From sequence record MN850635.1: 64,000 nt of DNA. One strand, written 5' to 3'. A program made the translations under genes and the position numbers. The DNA is from Escherichia phage bumzen. This document shows positions 5,130 through 33,202 of this stretch, piece by piece. Below the pieces are notes generated by a model. The model searched no databases and had not been told where the DNA came from. It was given only the letters and a program-made list of their open reading frames with translations. How positions within the stretch are numbered: position 1 is the first letter of the stretch; each line of letters starts with the position of its first letter.

Positions 5130-5687
5130 ATGAGATATTTGAAGTATGCTTCATGGATTTTCCTAGCTTTACTAGAGCCATTTGCAGCAACCCTAGCAGT
5201 CATCTTAGCACCTTTCGTAGTTCCATTCTATAGTGAGAAGAAAGGACACCTACCTTTTGGATTCAGATGGATGGAGACCTATGACAACCCGATTGATGGT
5301 GATAAAGGCCACGTTGAGAGATGGGCTAAGATTAGAAAGATTGGTAAGCTAGGTGTTTATATGCAAAGAGTCGGATGGCTCTGGAGAAACAAAGCTTATA
5401 ACTTCTCTTACCATGTATTAGGAAGAGATGTAAGAGATGTTACTAAGTGGAAAGGTAATATCAACGTAAGTTCTGACCCCGAAGATAATCAGACAGGTTA
5501 TCTCCTAATGTGGAACAGTAATGCTTGGGGATTATTCGCTTTTATCCCATCAATTAAAATCTTTGGTAAACAATTTTACTGGAGAATTTATATTGGATGG
5601 AAACTAAAAAGTGTTGTCCCAGAAGAAAGAGCATTCTCAAGGGAAAGAGTTATGTTGGCATTCTTTATTCATCCACTGAGAAAGTAA
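5130..5687 (+). CDS. hypothetical membrane protein
   Basis: 185 aa ORF after AAAGAGG; hydrophobic N-terminus WIFLALLEPFAATLAVILAPFVVPF; embedded in the tRNA array. Confidence 0.55.
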   Translation: MRYLKYASWIFLALLEPFAATLAVILAPFVVPFYSEKKGHLPFGFRWMETYDNPIDGDKGHVERWAKIRKIGKLGVYMQRVGWLWRNKAYNFSYHVLGRDVRDVTKWKGNINVSSDPEDNQTGYLLMWNSNAWGLFAFIPSIKIFGKQFYWRIYIGWKLKSVVPEERAFSRERVMLAFFIHPLRK

Positions 5688-5695
5688 AGATTTAA

Positions 5696-5771
5696 AGGGG
5701 ATTAGTTTACAAGGTTAAAACCTCGGTCTTTGAAATCGAAGAAGTTGGTTCAATTCCAACATCCCCCGCCA
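5696..5771 (+). tRNA. tRNA-Gln (anticodon TTG)
   Basis: Acceptor AGGGGAT/ATCCCCC (1-72 unpaired); D-stem GTTT/AAAC; anticodon loop CTTTGAA; G73; CCA encoded. Confidence 0.65.
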
Positions 5772-5773
5772 AT

Positions 5774-5852
5774 GCTCCATTACTCCAATTGGCAGAGAGG
5801 CCAGACTTAAAATCTGTGTTATGTATCGGTTCGAATCCGATATGGAGTACCA
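5774..5852 (+). tRNA. tRNA-Leu (anticodon TAA), short variable arm
   Basis: Acceptor GCTCCAT/ATGGAGT; D-loop AATTGGCAGA; anticodon stem CAGA/TCTG, loop CTTAAAA; A73; CCA encoded. Confidence 0.55.
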
Positions 5853-5857
5853 AATTT

Positions 5858-5933
5858 AGCGGTATAGCATAACTGGCAATGCAGCAGCCTCTGAAGCTGT
5901 CCTATTAAGGTTCAAATCCTTATGCCGCTGCCA
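5858..5933 (+). tRNA. tRNA-Gln (anticodon CTG)
   Basis: Acceptor AGCGGTA/TGCCGCT; anticodon stem CAGC/GCTG, loop CTCTGAA; G73; CCA encoded. Confidence 0.65.
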
Positions 5934-5964
5934 CTTCTAAGGATTCTTGCGAGAGTCCTTAAAT

Positions 5965-6040
5965 GTGGCCTTATCATAAACGGTAATGACCCATGCTGTG
6001 AACATGGTCTATACGGGTTCAAATCCCGTAGGTCACCCCA
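5965..6040 (+). tRNA. tRNA-His (anticodon GTG)
   Basis: Acceptor GTGGCCT/AGGTCAC; anticodon stem CCATG/CATGG, loop CTGTGAA; C73; CCA encoded; no encoded G-1. Confidence 0.7.
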
Positions 6041-6045
6041 ATTTA

Positions 6046-6122
6046 TAGTCCAAGTAGCTTATATGGTTAAAGCGCGTGTCTGAAAAACATGAGAAGAGGG
6101 TTCAAATCCCACTGGACTACCA
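6046..6122 (+). tRNA. tRNA-Phe (anticodon GAA)
   Basis: Acceptor TAGTCCA/TGGACTA; anticodon stem CGTGT/ACATG, loop CTGAAAA; T-loop TTCAAAT. Confidence 0.65.
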
Positions 6123-6138
6123 ATTTCAAAGGTGCTTA

Positions 6139-6873
6139 ATGAAAGAGATGACAGAACAAGGTAAGGAGATTTTTAATCTCTTAAAAACTGGTAAAGGGTT
6201 CTCTAACCCGCTTATTACTGGTGCAGCAGTTCTCGGTGGAACCGTAGCTGCTTCTACATCACTTGTAAGCTCTATTAGTTCTGTAACAGACCCTACAATG
6301 AAGGAGAAACTTGTTGCTGCTGGACTTACAACAGTCCTTCTAAACAGCTTTACAACAAGCCTTACAAGCACTACAGCAACTACTAAAACTCTGACAGACT
6401 ACGGTCAAAAATCTATTGATGAGTTTTCATCACGTATGCAGGTAGCAAAGGGGTATTCCAATGTTATGGGTGCAGCAGGAGAACAAGTTGGTTGTACACC
6501 ATTCAGTGGTATCATGGGTGTTGCTACAGAGTATGGTCAAAAAGCTATTGACATGATGAACAGTACACTAGATAGTGTTAATGGTGTGTTAAGTGACTTA
6601 CAAGATGCTATTGATAAGGGTCTTGATACTGTTTCTGATTTAGCTAACCAAGCTGTCAGTAAGATTAATGAAGGTATTTCAAAGATTACAGCTTATGCAG
6701 ATGAAGTTGTGCAGATGATTGAAGAAGAAGCTGCCATTATTGCAGAGTACCTTAAAACGAATATCAATGGGTTCTTAGCAGGTATCTTACCAGACTGGTT
6801 TGATGATGCTTGTAAAACTGGTGTAATTGACACTATTGCAACACCAGAAATGAAGAACGCATTACAGAAATAA
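6139..6873 (+). CDS. hypothetical Ser/Thr/Ala-rich protein
   Basis: ORF track 6076-6873 trimmed to ATG 6139 because the upstream part overlaps tRNA-Phe; 244 aa with a helical C-terminal half. Confidence 0.5.
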   Translation: MKEMTEQGKEIFNLLKTGKGFSNPLITGAAVLGGTVAASTSLVSSISSVTDPTMKEKLVAAGLTTVLLNSFTTSLTSTTATTKTLTDYGQKSIDEFSSRMQVAKGYSNVMGAAGEQVGCTPFSGIMGVATEYGQKAIDMMNSTLDSVNGVLSDLQDAIDKGLDTVSDLANQAVSKINEGISKITAYADEVVQMIEEEAAIIAEYLKTNINGFLAGILPDWFDDACKTGVIDTIATPEMKNALQK

Positions 6874-6874
6874 T

Positions 6875-6967
6875 GGAAGATTAACCCTAAAAGGTAAGGG
6901 AGCAGTTTGCTAAACTGCCAGTAGCTGAGAAATCGGTGTACCAGTTCAAGTCTGGTATCTTCCTCCA
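6875..6967 (+). tRNA. tRNA-Ser (anticodon GCT), long variable arm
   Basis: Acceptor GGAAGAT/ATCTTCC; anticodon stem GCAGT/ACTGC, loop TTGCTAA; long variable arm; T-arm ACCAG-TTCAAGT-CTGGT; CCA encoded. Confidence 0.7.
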
Positions 6968-6972
6968 ATTTT

Positions 6973-7048
6973 GAATCCGTGACAGAAATGGATATGTGCC
7001 TGTCTGCAAAACAGGTTTATAAGGGTTCAAGTCCCTTCGGATTCTCCA
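6973..7048 (+). tRNA. tRNA-Cys (anticodon GCA)
   Basis: Acceptor GAATCCG/CGGATTC; anticodon stem CCTGT/ACAGG, loop CTGCAAA; U73; CCA encoded. Confidence 0.7.
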
Positions 7049-18749: not shown

Positions 18750-26747
<7,998 letters not shown>

Positions 26748-26749
26748 TA

Positions 26750-27898
26750 ATGGCAGTAGGTGAAATTCAAATTAGTGCCTTGCCTCAAGCAGCCTTACCA
26801 ATTGACCTTAGTGATATCTTCCATCTTAAACAGGGTATCGAGGATAAGAGATGTACTCTTGAGCAATTACTTGCTCCACACTCAAGCCTAAGAAATAACC
26901 CTCATGGTGTTACTAAGACACAAATTGGTTTAGATAACGTTATTAATGCTCTCCAGTTAGTCGCTGCAAATAACTTATCAGATATTGTTAATGTAGCTGA
27001 GGCAAGAGCAAATCTACAGATTATGTCTTCAGAAGAGGTTAATAGCCTTATTCAACAGCATATTAATGACAAGAGCAACCCACACAATACAACTAAGGCG
27101 CAGGTTGGTTTAAGTAATGTCCAGAACTGGGTGACATCTAACCTTTATAATGAGGATGCAGATAAGTATGCTACAGCAAGAGCAGTAAATAACTTGTACA
27201 AGGCTGTTCAGGCTTCTTATCCAGTAGGTACTATCCATCTCTCTATGAATCCTGCAAACCCTTCTACATATTTAATTTGTGGAGGTACTTGGGAGTTAGT
27301 TTCAAAAGGAAGAGCACTTGTAGGTTATGATAGAGATTCTAGGCCAGTTGGTTCAACGTTTGGTTCACAGACTACTGCACTGACGGTTAATAACATCCCT
27401 GCACATACCCACTCAGTGTATGTCACTGGTGGTGGTCACACTCATGGTGCAACGGCCTCTGTCAGTGCTTTTGATTATGGCACTAAAGGGACTACAACGT
27501 TTGACTACGGAACCAAGACCGTATCTACTTACGACTATGGCAACAGAACAACAAGTGCCGCTGGCTTAACACAAACAACATTCATTAACCGTGGCTATGC
27601 TGATGGTGGCTGGAGAGGTTTATCGGTTGAGGGGGCAAGCTATGACCCAAGAGCTACGTTGACAACAGCTAACAACCACACTCACTCTGTAGCAATTGGT
27701 GCGCATAATCACACAGTGGGGATTGGTGCTCACAGCCATTCTGTTGCAATTGGTTCCCACAACCACTCAGCAACAGTAACAGTAACCGGAGCAGGTGAGC
27801 ATTCGCACTCTGGCACAACTGGCACAACTGGTTCTGGTCAAGCATTTAGCGTTGAGCAGCCATCCTTCGTATTGTATGTATGGCAGAGAACAGCTTAA
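26750..27898 (+). CDS. tail fibre protein with His-rich C-terminal tip
   Basis: 382 aa; C-terminal repeats PAHTHSV, GGHTHGA, FDYGTK x3, HTHSVAIGAHNHTVGIGAHSHSVAIGSHNHS. Confidence 0.65.
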   Translation: MAVGEIQISALPQAALPIDLSDIFHLKQGIEDKRCTLEQLLAPHSSLRNNPHGVTKTQIGLDNVINALQLVAANNLSDIVNVAEARANLQIMSSEEVNSLIQQHINDKSNPHNTTKAQVGLSNVQNWVTSNLYNEDADKYATARAVNNLYKAVQASYPVGTIHLSMNPANPSTYLICGGTWELVSKGRALVGYDRDSRPVGSTFGSQTTALTVNNIPAHTHSVYVTGGGHTHGATASVSAFDYGTKGTTTFDYGTKTVSTYDYGNRTTSAAGLTQTTFINRGYADGGWRGLSVEGASYDPRATLTTANNHTHSVAIGAHNHTVGIGAHSHSVAIGSHNHSATVTVTGAGEHSHSGTTGTTGSGQAFSVEQPSFVLYVWQRTA

Positions 27899-27908
27899 TT
27901 TCTTTACA

Positions 27909-27928
27909 GGGGCTGTATAGCCCCTTTT
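27909..27928 (+). terminator. rho-independent terminator
   Basis: GGGGCT-gtat-AGCCCC followed by TTTT. Confidence 0.65.
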
Positions 27929-27944
27929 AAGAGGAAAATTTATA

Positions 27945-30299
27945 ATGGCAGATTACAAGTTGAGTGAATTAAACTCAATTGATACAATTCGTTCAGACGA
28001 CCTCCTTCATATCAGGGTTAAAAAGAGACCTGAAATGCTGGGTGATGAAGACCGTCGAATGACCTATCAAGACTTCTTAGCGTCTTTTAAACTAGAAAGA
28101 TTTGTCCAGATTGCTGGTAGCACTATGACGGGTGACTTAGGAATTGTCAAGTTACTTTATGGTGGTAAGGCAGTATTTGACCCTACAGGTTCTTCTGAGA
28201 TTACTATGGGGGATGTTTTAAAGGCTTTTAAAATCAATGCAAATGGTCTTAAACTAACTATTGCAGATGCTTCAAGGTCTGCAACTGTTTATCATACTCT
28301 TAATAAGCCAAGTCCTAATGAACTTGGGATGAGAACTAATGAAGAGAATGATGCAAGATACTCAAGATTGGCTGCAAATAACACCTTTAGAGGTACTCAA
28401 AATATTCTATCTGATAATGAAACTATTATTGTTAAGAATATTACACAAGGAATGCCGCTGTATATTCGCGGTCAAGATGCAGATGGTACTAACAGGTGGT
28501 ATCTAGGTAATGATAACAAAGGTACAGACAATCTTGTTTTAAAAAATGTTAAATCTGGTGCATATGTAGCTATTTTGGGTAGCTTAATCACTGTGAACAA
28601 ATCTATCCAGATTACTGGTCAAGTTCAACCTTCTGATTGGTCTAACTTAGATACTAGATACTTTACTCAGACAGCAGCTAATCAGAGATTTGCACAGCTA
28701 GTTGGTAATAACACCTTCAGGGGTATTAACAATTTTGTAGGAGAGTTCAATATCACCAGAGATAACGCTGTGCTAGTCGTTAAGAATGCCACTGCTGCAA
28801 CTGGACTGTACTTGCTGGGGCAGAAGGCTGATGGGACAAACAAGTTCTACTTAGGGACTGATGACTCTGATTCTGTAGTTAATCTACATAACTACATCAC
28901 AAGCACAACCATCTCTTTGTCAAATGTGATTACCACTACTAAGACTGTGAAAATCACTGGACAAGTTCAACCTTCAGATTGGACTAACATTGACTCTAGA
29001 TACATCTCAGCAGGAACTTTGAGTAATCTTGCTAAGTTAAGTGATGTAAACACTTTTAGGATTGCACAGATTATTAATCAGAATGGTTCATTGTTACAGC
29101 TAAAGAATACTACACAAGACAAAGAGCTATACTTTGCTGGTCATAATGCTGATGGTGTTAGAAGGTGGTACATTGGGAATGGGGAACCATCCAACCCAGA
29201 AAGATTTATTATCCATAACGACAGAACTGCAACTACGATTTATATGCAAGATGATTTCTTGCTGAATAAAACTGTTAAAATTACTGGTCAAGTTCAACCA
29301 TCTGATTGGTCTAACTTAGATGCTAGATACTTCACTCAGGCAGCAGCTAATCAGAGATTTATGTATGCAGGTTCTACAGGAGAAGCTACAGAGCAGAATG
29401 CAGATGGTGTGGCATGGAACGCTAAAACAGGCTTATATAATGTAACCTCAACAAATGCTGATTACACAGCACTTGTGTTTCAAATGTATCAGGGGGTGAC
29501 CTCTTCTACTGCCTGTGCGCAATTAAAGTTCCAGTATAAAAACGGTGGAATGTGGTACAGAACATCTGTAGCTAGTAAAGGTTTTGAAGCTAAGTGGTCT
29601 AAGGTTTACACAGAGGCTCAGAAACCAACCCCTTCAGAGCTTGGTGCATACACTAAAGCAGAAACTGACCAGAAGATTGCACAGGCAGTAAGTGACTCTA
29701 CAGACCTTAATAAAATCTACCCAGTAGGTATTGTAACGTGGTTTAACAGTAATGTTAACCCTAATACAGCACTGCCTGGTCTAACTTGGACGTACCTTAA
29801 CAATGGTGTTGGTAGAACTATCAGAATTGCAGCAGCAAACGGTTCAGATGTTGCTACAACAGGTGGTTCAGACTCTGTGACGTTAGCTGTTGGTAACTTA
29901 CCATCACACACTCACAGTTTTTCTGCTACCACTTCATCTTTTGACTACGGAACAAAAAACACTAACACGACTGGTGCTCACGCTCACTCTGTAAGTGGCT
30001 CTACTTCATCTGCTGGTAACCACAACCATTCCATTTCGTGGATTGGTCAGAACTCTAAACACTACTCTGGTGGTGGTGGTGGTAGTATTGGTGTAGGACC
30101 GGGTTACACCGATGCTAACGGTGCTCACACCCACTCTGTAAGTGGTACTGCCGCTTCTGCTGGTAACCATGCTCACAGTGTAGGTATCGGTGCTCACACC
30201 CATACAGTTAGTGGTAACACTGGTGGTACAGGTTCTGGTTCAGCATTTAGTGTTACTAACCAGTTCTACAAGTTAATGGCTTGGGTAAGAACTGCTTAA
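27945..30299 (+). CDS. long tail fibre protein with internal repeats and His-rich C-terminal tip
   Basis: 784 aa; three copies of [11 protein letters not shown](S/T)N(L/I)D; C-terminus [29 protein letters not shown] repeats. Confidence 0.7.
28611..29360. repeat. intragenic tandem repeats (about 335 bp period, 3 copies) in the long tail-fibre gene
   Basis: ATTACTGGTCAAGTTCAACC(T/A)TCTGATTGG at about 28611, 28953 and 29281. Confidence 0.6.
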
Positions 30300-30306
30300 T
30301 CCCTTG

Positions 30307-30335
30307 TTGACTGATTGTTAAGATGGTGTTAATAT
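30307..30335 (+). promoter_or_regulatory. sigma70-like promoter candidate
   Basis: TTGACT (30307-30312), 17-nt spacer, TAATAT (30330-30335). Confidence 0.5.
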
Positions 30336-30378
30336 TCTTTATGGGTATTCTCACCATCTTGGCTGATGAGGTGATTAA

Positions 30379-30573
30379 ATGCCTACAATCCTAGCAATTC
30401 TTCTAAAAAATCTAGGTAGCTTCTTCTGGAAACTCATTTTATCCCTTCTAAGTGAATACATGATTGAGAAAGTGTTCTTTAAGCTTGCAAGATACCTTGC
30501 GAGTAAAACAGACACACCTATTGATGATGAGTTCGTAGATAACTTAGAAAAAGCTTTTAAGGGGGAGAAATAA
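30379..30573 (+). CDS. small membrane protein (holin-like?)
   Basis: 64 aa; hydrophobic N-terminus ILAILLKNLGSFFWKLILSLL. Confidence 0.4.
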   Translation: MPTILAILLKNLGSFFWKLILSLLSEYMIEKVFFKLARYLASKTDTPIDDEFVDNLEKAFKGEK

Positions 30574-30945
30574 ATGAAGTGGCTAGAGGAAGCTTTTAAA
30601 AATAATATTGGTGCAATTGTAGTTGGTATTTTTAGTGTTATTGGGATGTATACCACGATGCAAGTCTCAAGTGGTAAGCAAGAAGTATCTGTCACAACAA
30701 AGTTACAGCAGCTAGATAATTATTCCAAAAGTAACTATTCAGCTATTCGTGATTTACAGTCTGACATGAGACTGATTCAGCTAGGGATGGAGAACCAGAA
30801 AGTTCAGTTAGAGAATGTTAAGGGTGAAAACGCAAAACTTACCAAAACTCTTGATAAATTCTCTGACAGTGTGAACAATCTGGCTCAATCAGTATCAGCC
30901 TTGCAAGCTATTACTGAAAAGAACACAAAGAATACTGAAAAATAA
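30574..30945 (+). CDS. membrane-anchored coiled-coil protein (spanin-like?)
   Basis: 123 aa; N-terminal TM segment IGAIVVGIFSVIGMY then heptad-like region; no endolysin seen in this window. Confidence 0.4.
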   Translation: MKWLEEAFKNNIGAIVVGIFSVIGMYTTMQVSSGKQEVSVTTKLQQLDNYSKSNYSAIRDLQSDMRLIQLGMENQKVQLENVKGENAKLTKTLDKFSDSVNNLAQSVSALQAITEKNTKNTEK

Positions 30946-30952
30946 AATTTAA

Positions 30953-30978
30953 GGCTCCCGTAAAAAGGAGCCTTTTTT
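30953..30978. terminator. bidirectional rho-independent terminator between convergent gene blocks
   Basis: GGCTCC-cgtaaaaa-GGAGCC with TTTTTT downstream and an A/T run upstream. Confidence 0.7.
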
Positions 30979-30982
30979 GTTT

Positions 30983-31882
30983 TTACTTACCTACTGACAG
31001 AGGTGCTTCAATCTTCCCTGCATGTTGGTAGTTGTTAATACCACCAATAAAATCACTTGCAGTAAGATGTTTCAGGTCACTCAGGGTGTTAAGCTGTACA
31101 CCAATCTCAAAAGTAGGTGCATGGAACTCTTCATTGTTCATCAGTTTATAAACCTGCTTCATATGGTTCTGATAAATCTGGGTATCCCCAAAGACACCTA
31201 TCAAGTACCGTGGAGTGTATCCAGTCATCTTGCAAAGAACTTCTAAGATGAAGCCATAAGACGCAATGTTAAATGGAAGCCCTAAAAAGGTGTCTACAGA
31301 ACGTTGATACCATTGCAAGTCAACTTCACCTTCGTTAGTGATATAAATCTGAAACAGGACATGACAAGGTGCTAAAGCCATTGAGTTTGCTGCGATATCT
31401 GCTGCATTCCAAGCATTAACAAGCATGTATCGGTCTGTGATATCACCCTTCATCTTCGTTACTAAGGTCTCTAGCTGGTCTACAACACAACCGTTATAAC
31501 CTTCAAAGTTTCTCCACTGAACTCCATAGATTCTCCCACCTGCATCCTCTAACCAATCTTGTTCAGAAGAATAATTAGAGCTTAACCAACGTTTAAAATC
31601 ATCTGACCAGATAGTCCAGCGTTCTCCGTCATTTTCATCCCAAGTACGGTAACGAAGTTCACCCAGCTTATTCTCACCATTCAGGAACCATAAAGCCTCC
31701 CCAATAACTTGCCGTGTAAACACCTGTTTAGATGTTAAGAGCGGGAAACCAGTCCTCATATCAAAACGAAACTGAGGTGGAGCAAAAGCAGAGATAACAT
31801 CTCCAGTTCGTGTAGTACGCAGTTCACCAACGGATAAAACATGGTTCAGGATATTTTTGTAACTTGTATCTGCTTGTGACAT
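30983..31882 (-). CDS. thyA: thymidylate synthase
   Basis: 299 aa; ThyA-like N-terminus ...RTGDVISAFAPPQFRFDMRTGFPLLTSK; active-site LAPCHVLFQ. Confidence 0.85.
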   Translation of the reverse strand: MSQADTSYKNILNHVLSVGELRTTRTGDVISAFAPPQFRFDMRTGFPLLTSKQVFTRQVIGEALWFLNGENKLGELRYRTWDENDGERWTIWSDDFKRWLSSNYSSEQDWLEDAGGRIYGVQWRNFEGYNGCVVDQLETLVTKMKGDITDRYMLVNAWNAADIAANSMALAPCHVLFQIYITNEGEVDLQWYQRSVDTFLGLPFNIASYGFILEVLCKMTGYTPRYLIGVFGDTQIYQNHMKQVYKLMNNEEFHAPTFEIGVQLNTLSDLKHLTASDFIGGINNYQHAGKIEAPLSVGK

Positions 31883-31883
31883 A

Positions 31884-32429
31884 TCAAAAGTGTCCTTTTA
31901 CTTGTGGAACATAAATTTCAAAAGTTGCTTTACCATCCTCTGATGGTTTTGACTGTACCTTTGTAAACACACGGTTATCATACAGCTTCTCAAAGAAGTT
32001 TTCAAAAGGTAAATGCACAGTGGCCTCTTCAGTAACTTTATGGAAAACAGTATGGAACACCACACTAGCATACGGTAAAGCATTGACAAGGATACCTGCA
32101 CCACCAATTACAAAGACATCTTCATCAATAGAGCTATCAAGATACTTCAAAAATGCTCCAAATGACTCTTTACTGGCTTTAGCATACATTACATCATCTT
32201 TGCCAAAGTCTATGCCTAAGTATGGTACAGAATTTGTTAAGATGAGGTTTGCACGTTCTGGTAAAGGTTTACTACCCAGAGTCTTAAAAGTCTCATTACC
32301 CATGACTACTAAGTTATTTTTAGTGAGCCTCTTAAACTCTTGCATGTCCTGTTTATGTCGAGGCCACGGCATACCAGTCGGTGTACCAAATTCACCGTTT
32401 TCACCACTTGCAAATATTAGCTTAATCAT
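31884..32429 (-). CDS. frd: dihydrofolate reductase
   Basis: 181 aa; MIKLIFASGENGEFG...GMPWP...VVMGNETF; adjacent to thyA. Confidence 0.8.
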   Translation of the reverse strand: MIKLIFASGENGEFGTPTGMPWPRHKQDMQEFKRLTKNNLVVMGNETFKTLGSKPLPERANLILTNSVPYLGIDFGKDDVMYAKASKESFGAFLKYLDSSIDEDVFVIGGAGILVNALPYASVVFHTVFHKVTEEATVHLPFENFFEKLYDNRVFTKVQSKPSEDGKATFEIYVPQVKGHF

Positions 32430-32686
32430 TTTGTAAATCCTTTCTTAATGAACCAGTTAATAACATTCTTCACAGCTTTATTGCTGTGATAGATTAAGTG
32501 TGGTGTAGGTTGGTATGAACCATAGGCCCAGAATGATAGATGCTCACCACAACCAACACATGTCGTACTCTCTTCAGCTATATGACCATTAACAATCACA
32601 TGAACTTCACCTTGCAAGTCTGTACATCCACAATGTGGGCATCGGATAGGTGTTCCATCAGACTCATAGCAGTGTTCAATTTTCAT
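32426..32686 (-). CDS. zinc-ribbon protein (hypothetical)
   Basis: 86 aa; Cys pairs CPHCGC and CVGCGEH. Confidence 0.45.
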   Translation of the reverse strand: MKIEHCYESDGTPIRCPHCGCTDLQGEVHVIVNGHIAEESTTCVGCGEHLSFWAYGSYQPTPHLIYHSNKAVKNVINWFIKKGFTK

Positions 32687-33202
32687 TTATTTAACCTCAA
32701 AAACTGGCTCAAGAACCAATATAAAATCTACACAGTCATCTTCTTCATCCAGAATACCATCAAAGTTCTTAGGAACGAAGTCGAAGAGGCTCATCACAAA
32801 ACAGTCAGAAGTAACCTTTATAGTTCCTCCCATGTTCTCTACAGTTAACACTGTACGACTTTCTTTTACCTCCCTCAGAAGATTACCTACAAAGTCATCT
32901 AAGAAGTACTTCATCAATGACTTAAAACCTTTAGGATAATCTGTACCAGAGTATGTTTCAATCTGCGGTACAAGCTTAACATTTATACTAGTCTTTGTTA
33001 AGAATGCACTAGAGAACATACTATCAGGTAGCTTACAAACAGTCTTTCCAGTACCTTCATGTTCAATCTCAACAAAACCAGCTTCGTCGCCACATGTAAC
33101 TATTTTAAAAGATGCTTCATTCTCATACTGTGAAGCCATAAACTTTTTAAGCATCTCTTTAAGGAAATCTGCATGAGCATCTTGTAAGTAGACATCAATC
33201 AT
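32687..33202 (-). CDS. hypothetical protein
   Basis: 171 aa ORF in the - strand operon. Confidence 0.45.
   Translation of the reverse strand: MIDVYLQDAHADFLKEMLKKFMASQYENEASFKIVTCGDEAGFVEIEHEGTGKTVCKLPDSMFSSAFLTKTSINVKLVPQIETYSGTDYPKGFKSLMKYFLDDFVGNLLREVKESRTVLTVENMGGTIKVTSDCFVMSLFDFVPKNFDGILDEEDDCVDFILVLEPVFEVK

Follow-up and report, generated by a model that had tools for sequence, protein, structure and literature searches.

What are two neighbouring tail fibre genes that end in the same histidine-rich sequence, and what do the internal repeats of the longer one do? The genes lie at positions 26,750 to 30,299 of a 64,000-nucleotide (nt) stretch of DNA from Escherichia phage bumzen (sequence record MN850635.1). 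This stretch is called the window here, and coordinates are positions in it. A preliminary description of the window had proposed a metal-binding tip module shared by both fibres and a variation of fibre length mediated by the repeats. In this study, we identify the two open reading frames (ORFs), with a probability of roughly 0.88, as the short tail fibre (STF) and the long tail fibre (LTF) of a Felix O1-like myophage, each ending in a receptor-binding tip of the T4 gp37 type. The shared tip module is correct and already published for the near-identical phage Bas63; the metal itself is presumed by analogy with T4. Length variation by means of the repeats is contradicted. Moreover, we show that the LTF is, as judged from sequence comparison, a cassette mosaic, in which repeat cores, mid domain and head are exchanged between phages at short conserved junctions.

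Tip architecture of the two fibres

Both ORFs match tail fibre families over their full length and have orthologues in Bas63. The STF is 98.7% identical to Bas63 gp26, with the same length and the same positions of its HxH motifs, and the LTF is 74.4% identical to Bas63 gp27 and of equal length. The parts of the STF and the distal parts of the LTF are:

26750..27898, + strand: STF gene, 382 residues, orthologue of Bas63 gp26 (ORF; phrog_2097 tail fibre, E 2e-127, full length)
26891..27127, + strand: STF shaft with an internal repeat, NNPHGVTKTQIGLDNV at 26891-26947 and SNPHNTTKAQVGLSNV at 27071-27127 (from the sequence; helices in the predicted model)
27179..27391, + strand: STF collar of the T4 gp10 C-terminal-domain type, about residues 144-214 (Pfam Gp10_C, E 9e-18; PDB 2FKK and 5HX2)
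27392..27541, + strand: STF needle, outgoing strand, with two HxH motifs (residues 219 and 230), then FDYGTK, FDYGTK and YDYGNR (aligns to T4 gp37 AHSHS...SSFDYGTKG)
27542..27673, + strand: STF head (hairpin) region, about residues 265-308, boundaries approximate
27674..27814, + strand: STF needle, returning strand, with five HxH motifs (residues 310, 319, 328, 337 and 351; aligns to T4 gp37)
27815..27895, + strand: STF C-terminal segment GTTGTTGSGQAFSVEQPSFVLYVWQRTA, conserved between both fibres and among homologues
27945..30299, + strand: LTF gene, 784 residues, orthologue of Bas63 gp27 (ORF; phrog_4277, 1289 bits, full length)
29715..29894, + strand: LTF collar, about residues 591-650 (aligns to the STF collar; conserved at 0.98-0.99)
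29895..30032, + strand: LTF needle, outgoing strand, with HxH at residues 655, 679 and 693 and one FDYGTK
30033..30125, + strand: LTF head (hairpin) region, about residues 697-727 (variable; identity 0.65, with insertions)
30126..30296, + strand: LTF needle, returning strand (HxH at residues 728, 742 and 751), and C-terminal segment (histidine and C-terminal columns invariant)

Both fibres end in clusters of HxH motifs, as had been described. The STF has seven, where shuffles of its own composition averaged 0.99 and reached 5 at most (n=2000), and the LTF has six (shuffles: mean 0.39, maximum 4). They stand on both strands of the needle around a non-repetitive head, two going out and five coming back in the STF, three and three in the LTF. 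Four of the five on the returning STF strand are spaced by 9 residues (27 nt; DNA repeat family D2). The motif (F/Y)DYG(T/N)(K/R) occurs three times in the STF, twice as FDYGTK and once as YDYGNR. The LTF has a single FDYGTK, so that the repetition of this motif, first ascribed to both fibres, is found in the STF alone. The final segments are similar, as noted before: the last approximately 250 residues of STF and LTF align at 35% identity (E 7e-28) through ...AFSV......W.RTA, and GSGQAFSVEQPSFVLYVWQRTA, with its 22-residue counterpart, is one segment of this alignment. The STF collar scores 65.9 bits against Gp10_C (cutoff 27) and is matched by sequence to 2FKK and 5HX2; the LTF collar scores 26.3 bits, just below the cutoff.

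The same region leads to the receptor-binding tip of T4 gp37. Using phmmer, LTF residues 653-763 matched the T4 tip structure 2XGF with E 1.1e-17 and STF residues 147-352 with E 3.1e-14. In these alignments the HxH motifs, FDYGTK and the 9-residue period GxHxHxVxI of the window fibres fall on the corresponding T4 residues. The histidines are invariant or nearly invariant columns within an otherwise variable tip. Among 57 STF relatives (down to 27% identity), H219, H221, H337 and H339 belong to only ten invariant columns, with H310 and H312 coming close; for the LTF, comparison of 51 relatives showed nine invariant and three nearly invariant tip histidines. W378 and R380 of the STF C-terminal segment are invariant among homologues as well. 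For Bas63, cryo-electron microscopy (cryo-EM) described a collar, a needle which doubles back at a small head, and six strands forming a barrel in both fibres; the STF's seven di-histidine motifs and the six of the LTF were compared with the seven iron sites of T4 gp37 (PMC12609058). The counterpart of the STF C-terminal segment runs back to the collar in T4 and Bas63 (PMC12609058). Taken together, these matches, the aligned HxH motifs, the invariant histidines and the Bas63 description bear out a shared tip module, which by analogy with T4 would bind metal.

The following architecture is proposed. Each fibre would be a homotrimer docked on the baseplate via its N-terminus, as suggested by T4 and Bas63. 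In each tip, a collar of the type found at the C-terminus of T4 gp10 would be followed by a thin needle, with a head at the far end. In the needle the chain would run out, turn in the head and return, and six strands from three chains would form the barrel. Each HxH would contribute two histidines per chain, the three chains enclosing one metal ion, which is Fe2+ in T4; seven metal sites are therefore presumed in the STF and six in the LTF. The metal sites would rivet the needle together and would serve its structure, not receptor binding. Contact with the lipopolysaccharide (LPS) core is presumed to be made by the variable head. The STF head is the most variable part of its fibre, with identities to 48 homologues down to 0.13-0.39 and the insertions located there, and its role in receptor contact is likewise presumed from T4. 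For the LTF head, DNA identity to VpaE1 and UAB_69 falls to 0.32-0.48. Infection by Bas63 requires the LPS core to be intact, and this group has no known protein receptor.

Several observations weigh against this reading. Of the six HxH motifs of the LTF, the HMMER alignment places only five on HxH motifs of T4. Single-chain AlphaFold2 models reached a predicted local distance difference test score (pLDDT) of 63 for the STF and 50.8 for the LTF, with 25-35 in the LTF tip, which is too poor to judge histidine geometry. The STF collar is the best-modelled part of its fibre (pLDDT 73-91), and the best fold matches of this low-confidence monomer model were weak ones to T4 gp10 structures (Foldseek, E 0.01-0.03). 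The gp37 tip 2XGF was not returned by this search, and the gp37-like Bizionia C24 tip 6OV6 was matched weakly (E 1.2-2.2). In Bas63 the fibre density did not permit side-chain modelling, and the metal is not resolved there (PMC12609058). Since those side chains are unmodelled, iron binding in Felixounavirus fibres is presumed wholly from homology to T4. The head as contact site, too, is presumed from T4 and not from a member of this group.

Cassette structure of the long tail fibre

Between the baseplate and the tip, the LTF carries the following parts:

27945..28319, + strand: LTF N-terminal part, residues 1-125, baseplate-binding domain and first shaft segment (identity 0.91-0.99, 120 homologues; role in baseplate binding from the Bas63 study, PMC12609058)
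28320..28649, + strand: LTF repeat 1, residues 126-235, gp37_trimer or T4 gp34-like shaft domain (Pfam E 1.9e-15; variable core about 28365-28604)
28650..28991, + strand: LTF repeat 2, residues 236-349 (Pfam E 1.4e-10; variable core about 28725-28964)
28992..29318, + strand: LTF repeat 3, residues 350-458 (Pfam E 1.7e-15; variable core about 29025-29264)
28594..28691, + strand: junction after repeat 1, 31 residues (DNA family D3; kept across relatives at 0.77-0.98)
28940..29006, + strand: junction after repeat 2, 22 residues (DNA family D1)
29263..29360, + strand: junction after repeat 3, 31 residues (DNA families D1 and D3)
29319..29714, + strand: LTF mid domain, residues 459-590, Pfam gp37_C or phage Mu fibre type (PF12604, E 1.8e-19; PDB 8JU3)

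The three repeats score 57.1, 41.4 and 57.3 bits against Pfam PF20744 gp37_trimer (cutoff 21.7) and the mid domain, which is variable among relatives, 70.1 bits against PF12604 (cutoff 22.5). Residues 469-578 align by sequence to the phage Mu fibre 8JU3 with E 2e-16. Repeat cores and mid domain were modelled better than the rest of the LTF (pLDDT 70-89), and the model was informative in the fold search for the shaft and the mid domain alone: Foldseek returned the Mu fibre 8JU3 (E 5e-7), T4 gp34 4UXG (E 1e-4) and, weakly, the tip domain of T7 gp17. The LTF shaft can thus be described as probably lengthened by three tandem domains of about 110 residues, of the same type as the T4 gp34 rod, with a domain like that of the phage Mu fibre behind them. 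One linker motif is present twice, ahead of repeat 1 (28308-28361) and ahead of the collar (29625-29678; BLASTP E 5e-5 to 3e-4).

Comparison of the LTF gene with 8 relatives in 60-nt windows of DNA identity revealed blocks of about 0.9-1.0 alternating with blocks of mostly 0.4-0.6, separated by conserved junctions of 0.8-1.0. The block borders lie at the junctions 28605-28724, 28965-29024 and 29265-29324 and at about 29625. Hence the shaft from 28365 to 29624 falls into four cassettes, the three repeat cores and the mid domain, each of which is either about 90-100% or about 40-55% identical in a given relative. The skuden LTF has repeats 2 and 3 as in the window, repeat 1 and the mid domain being different; tootiki shares the mid domain alone and Bas63 repeat 3 alone. 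Among 120 homologues, block boundaries peak at residues 141-160, 221-260, 321-360 and 441-480 and to either side of the head. Together these homologues contain 360 repeat units, which group into 15 types (70% single linkage) and occur in 40 combinations; all four combinations of two types were present in 28, 22 and 12 quartets. Four types are found at positions 1 and 3 alike, with up to 78% identity across positions, in keeping with the 90% DNA identity over 98 nt of the junctions after repeats 1 and 3. Types of repeat 2 are confined to position 2.

Probable exchange of tip cassettes between the two fibres

In some relatives, a cassette of 200-274 nt is common to the STF and LTF of one genome, with 87-91% DNA identity. 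It covers the distal needle and the head, begins at FDYGTK and ends at an HxH box. The fibre regions concerned are:

L008:606-4171: Salmonella phage UAB_69
L009:4001-7739: metagenomic relative
L010:2788-6355: metagenomic relative
L011:2764-6325: mio

The cassette of L010 was found at two places in 14 of 66 matching records of the phage collection. This suggests that the two fibre genes of these relatives have undergone exchange or gene conversion with each other, and as a side result the head cassette apparently works in either fibre. In the window and seven other isolates, matches between STF and LTF extend over only 27-49 nt, in the needle and the C-terminal region. The two heads of the window phage are unrelated to each other, and in the sample no cross-fibre counterpart at at least 80% was found for either (maxima 47% and 35%). 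Most likely, therefore, they represent two different tip specificities.

Cassettes are exchanged at two kinds of site, the shaft junctions and, in the needle, the FDYGTK and HxH boxes. This raises the question whether the HxH "His boxes", FDYGTK and the junctions act mainly as linkers for DNA recombination, their role in the protein being secondary. Such linkers were reportedly proposed by Tetart, Desplats and Krisch in 1998 for T-even adhesins. We take this possibility seriously, with the odds somewhat against it. Block boundaries coincide with these motifs, one STF variant departs from the window STF exactly after FDYGTK and rejoins it at the last HxH box, and the cassettes shared by STF and LTF in mio, UAB_69 and two metagenome contigs lie between such motifs. 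However, the histidines persist in relatives as distant as 27% identity, whose DNA can no longer be aligned, a sign of constraint at the protein level, and in T4 gp37 the corresponding histidines hold iron (2XGF, as reported in PMC12609058). The linker and protein roles are compatible; a linker function adds to the gp37-type tip as the best explanation and does not replace it.

Going further, the fibre pair could form a combinatorial kit for host recognition, a tentative view which we would sooner doubt than accept. The three shaft domains, the Mu-like mid domain and the head would then reassort independently at the conserved junctions. Heads would move between STF and LTF by gene conversion, with FDYGTK and the His boxes as linkers, and phages would switch between one specificity carried on two fibre lengths (mio, UAB_69) and two specificities (window, Bas63).

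The shaft itself might take part in binding. According to this possibility, which we consider unlikely, the variable LTF shaft cassettes are lateral glycan-binding or sheath-docking modules under diversifying selection. If surface glycans do bind to them laterally, the fibre would encode host range over its entire length. The cores form discrete, reassorting types and are 29-49% identical in protein between phages whose flanks are 95-100% identical, and the mid domain, a homologue of the distal Mu fibre, has a likeness to the tip domain of T7 gp17. Receptor contacts proximal to the tip were considered possible for Sf14 (PMC11821841), and both fibres lie along the sheath in the Bas63 virion (PMC12609058). 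Yet bumzen, skuden, tootiki, momo and mio, which differ in their cassettes, were all isolated on the rough-LPS host K-12 MG1655. Cassettes are thus not needed to discriminate this strain, which argues against a role in its recognition. Moreover, recombination together with drift in a shaft that tolerates structural change would yield the same pattern.

Number and divergence of the repeats

The preliminary description had reported three DNA-level repeats of about 335 base pairs in the LTF gene. Three tandem units are indeed present and the period is right, the starts lying 342 and 327 nt apart, but the DNA identity of whole units is only 53-56% (37-44% in protein; pairwise BLASTP E 1e-20 to 3e-26). 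The recognisable DNA repeat is a segment of only 67-98 nt per junction, with 75-90% identity. A 15-residue string quoted as common to all three repeats occurs exactly in one copy; the other two differ. Tandem Repeats Finder reported nothing for 24000-33000, because the repeats are too diverged in DNA. They were detected by BLASTP of LTF fragments against a masked copy of the LTF, as self-comparison of the whole protein gave the identity match alone.

Repeat number was then compared among relatives, a check set beforehand. A hidden Markov model (HMM) built from the three window units was used for counting; a strict regular expression for the junction motif gave unreliable counts of 0-3. The HMM found exactly three units at the same positions in 120 of the 120 closest cluster representatives (70-100% identical, 778-843 residues). 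Using tblastn, the N-terminal 458 residues of the LTF matched 253 phage records, which are spread over the Ounavirinae and have the Moogle, SUSP2 and Sf13 types among them. In 249 of the 253 the match was colinear and covered at least 80% of the query, and among the matches listed it spanned about 1360-1410 nt across Felixounavirus, Mooglevirus and Suspvirus. Among 18 species, no variable repeat number was seen by the authors of the Bas63 study either (PMC12609058). The invariant number is half of what the preliminary description had named as evidence against its interpretation.

Unequal crossing-over between the repeats of about 335 base pairs, by which fibre length would vary through gain and loss of units, is therefore highly improbable. 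Junctions of 67-98 nt could misalign, the first and third being the most similar, and LTF lengths do range from 778 to 843 residues. However, it is the mid domain and the head that hold the small insertions and deletions, not the repeats. The largest length difference in the family is a replacement: LTFs of 841-843 residues (momo, L003:1801-4332; also L009:5214-7739) carry a longer unrelated domain, with about 60 extra residues, in place of the gp37_C mid domain. Measurement of mid-domain length by regular expression was confounded by motif variation, and only the values of the window (135 residues) and momo were used. With a fixed number and exchanged cassettes, the repeats matter as swappable cassettes rather than as a ruler of length.

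If one of the repeat numbers in these fibres is variable, it is that of the short needle motifs. STF relatives contain 7-10 HxH motifs (9 in 43 of 48) and one to four copies of FDYGTK and are 360-415 residues long, and all of this variation lies inside residues 201-360.

Least credible of all is a "Ferrojan horse", in which tip-bound iron engages host siderophore receptors during infection, an idea reportedly discussed for HxH-rich fibres (PMC11705849). A pair of fibre trimers would offer up to 13 presumed metal sites, but the T4 ions lie within the needle, buried along its threefold axis (2XGF, as reported in PMC12609058), and Bas63 depends on the LPS core in a group without a known protein receptor.

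Comparison with known fibres

The tip resembles that of T4 gp37 (2XGF) in its collar, the HxH motifs on outgoing and returning strands, the head between them, FDYGTK and the 9-residue period. In T4, however, it ends a kinked fibre of about 1400 Å made of four proteins, whereas in the window it is fused directly to short single-protein fibres and is carried by two different fibres of one virion, and the head sequences are unrelated. The T4 fibre needs the chaperones gp38 and gp57A. For the genome of Sf14, a fibre chaperone homologue is not reported (PMC11821841). The LTF repeats match the T4 gp34 rod (4UXG, 5NXH; PF20744) by family and by model; the window LTF differs in having only three copies, sharply conserved junctions and hypervariable cores. 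In phage Mu (8JU3; PF12604) the region aligned to the mid domain, chain residues 320-426, lies near the distal end of a fibre that has its own chaperone, whereas in the LTF it is internal and followed by the T4-type tip.

The closest described system is Bas63 (Escherichia phage JohannRWettstein), which belongs to the same genus and has the same gene order, fibre lengths of 382 and 784 residues, HxH at the same positions in both fibres, and three gp34-like repeats followed by a mid domain (PMC12609058). It differs in the cores of repeat 1 (49%) and repeat 2 (29%) and in the mid domain (42%), which are different cassettes, and its LTF has HHxH at residues 692-695, where the window has NHNH. Sf14 (Mooglevirus) gp52 and gp53, of 391 and 792 residues, follow the same domain plan with a gp37-like tip and contain a domain like Mu gp49 and T7 gp17 (PMC11821841). 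They belong to another genus, and in the close relatives Sf13 and Sf19 the N-terminal 458 residues of the LTF are about 48% identical to those of the window. The gp37/C24-like region of gp52 was placed centrally, not terminally, by its authors (PMC11821841). Likenesses of shaft and mid domain to Mu, gp34 and T7 gp17 were reported for both Bas63 and Sf14 (PMC12609058, PMC11821841).

The HxH tip of the window fibres is thus a real, ordinary and already known finding, which adds nothing to these structural papers of 2025. The cassette mosaic and the exchange of tips between fibres are modest additions within the well-known theme of tail fibre mosaicism; a literature search for fibre mosaicism or recombination in Felixounavirus yielded nothing specific.

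Locus identity and gene context

Judged by the LTF, which matches the "tail fibers protein" of Escherichia phage bumzen at 100% identity, the source would be this phage or a near-identical one of the genus Felixounavirus. The window DNA matched 239 Felixounavirus-type records at 80-97%. The neighbouring features are:

24116-25585: Baseplate_J protein, upstream of the fibres
25588-26445: baseplate protein of 285 residues, upstream of the fibres
26445..26747, + strand: protein of 100 residues, orthologue of Bas63 gp25 (phrog_4141, E 2.6e-62; position and length as bas63_0025)
30379-30945: ORFs of 64 and 123 residues, 3' of the LTF gene; the latter with an N-terminal hydrophobic stretch and annotated "holin" in relatives
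30951-30974: bidirectional terminator-like hairpin between the 123-residue ORF and the convergent thymidylate synthase gene

The order common to the window and Bas63 is wedge 2, wedge 1, LTF platform, STF, LTF, a small ORF and a holin-annotated ORF; it is the same in Bas63 (bas63_0023 to bas63_0029) and eight other genomes. Cryo-EM of Bas63 assigned the same genes in the order wedge 2, wedge 1, LTF platform, STF gp26 and LTF gp27, gp25 being the long-fibre platform on the baseplate wedge (PMC12609058). Thymidylate synthase and dihydrofolate reductase are the next genes downstream, on the opposite strand. Promoter and terminator scans of 26000-31000 gave hits at chance level only.

The practical value of the present analysis is correct annotation, as GenBank labelling of these fibre genes is inconsistent. 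In the Bas63 entry the short fibre of 382 residues (bas63_0026, L001:3306-4454) is labelled "long tail fiber protein" and the long fibre of 784 residues "tail fiber protein", which reverses the cryo-EM assignment. Felix O1-like phages are in use for Salmonella diagnostics and biocontrol, and the natural cassette boundaries mapped in both fibres could help to engineer their host range.

Three further observations concern the window and its database matches. A cluster of 25 tRNA genes lies at 1776-7048 on the + strand. Homologues of the downstream 64-residue ORF in relatives have a Phage_PM2_Gpl Pfam match. Finally, two records named "Campylobacter phage A132" (MG065664.1) and "A126" (MG065668.1) match a Felixounavirus fibre-tip cassette at 98.9% and 75.7% identity, respectively, and look like mislabelled or contaminated entries.

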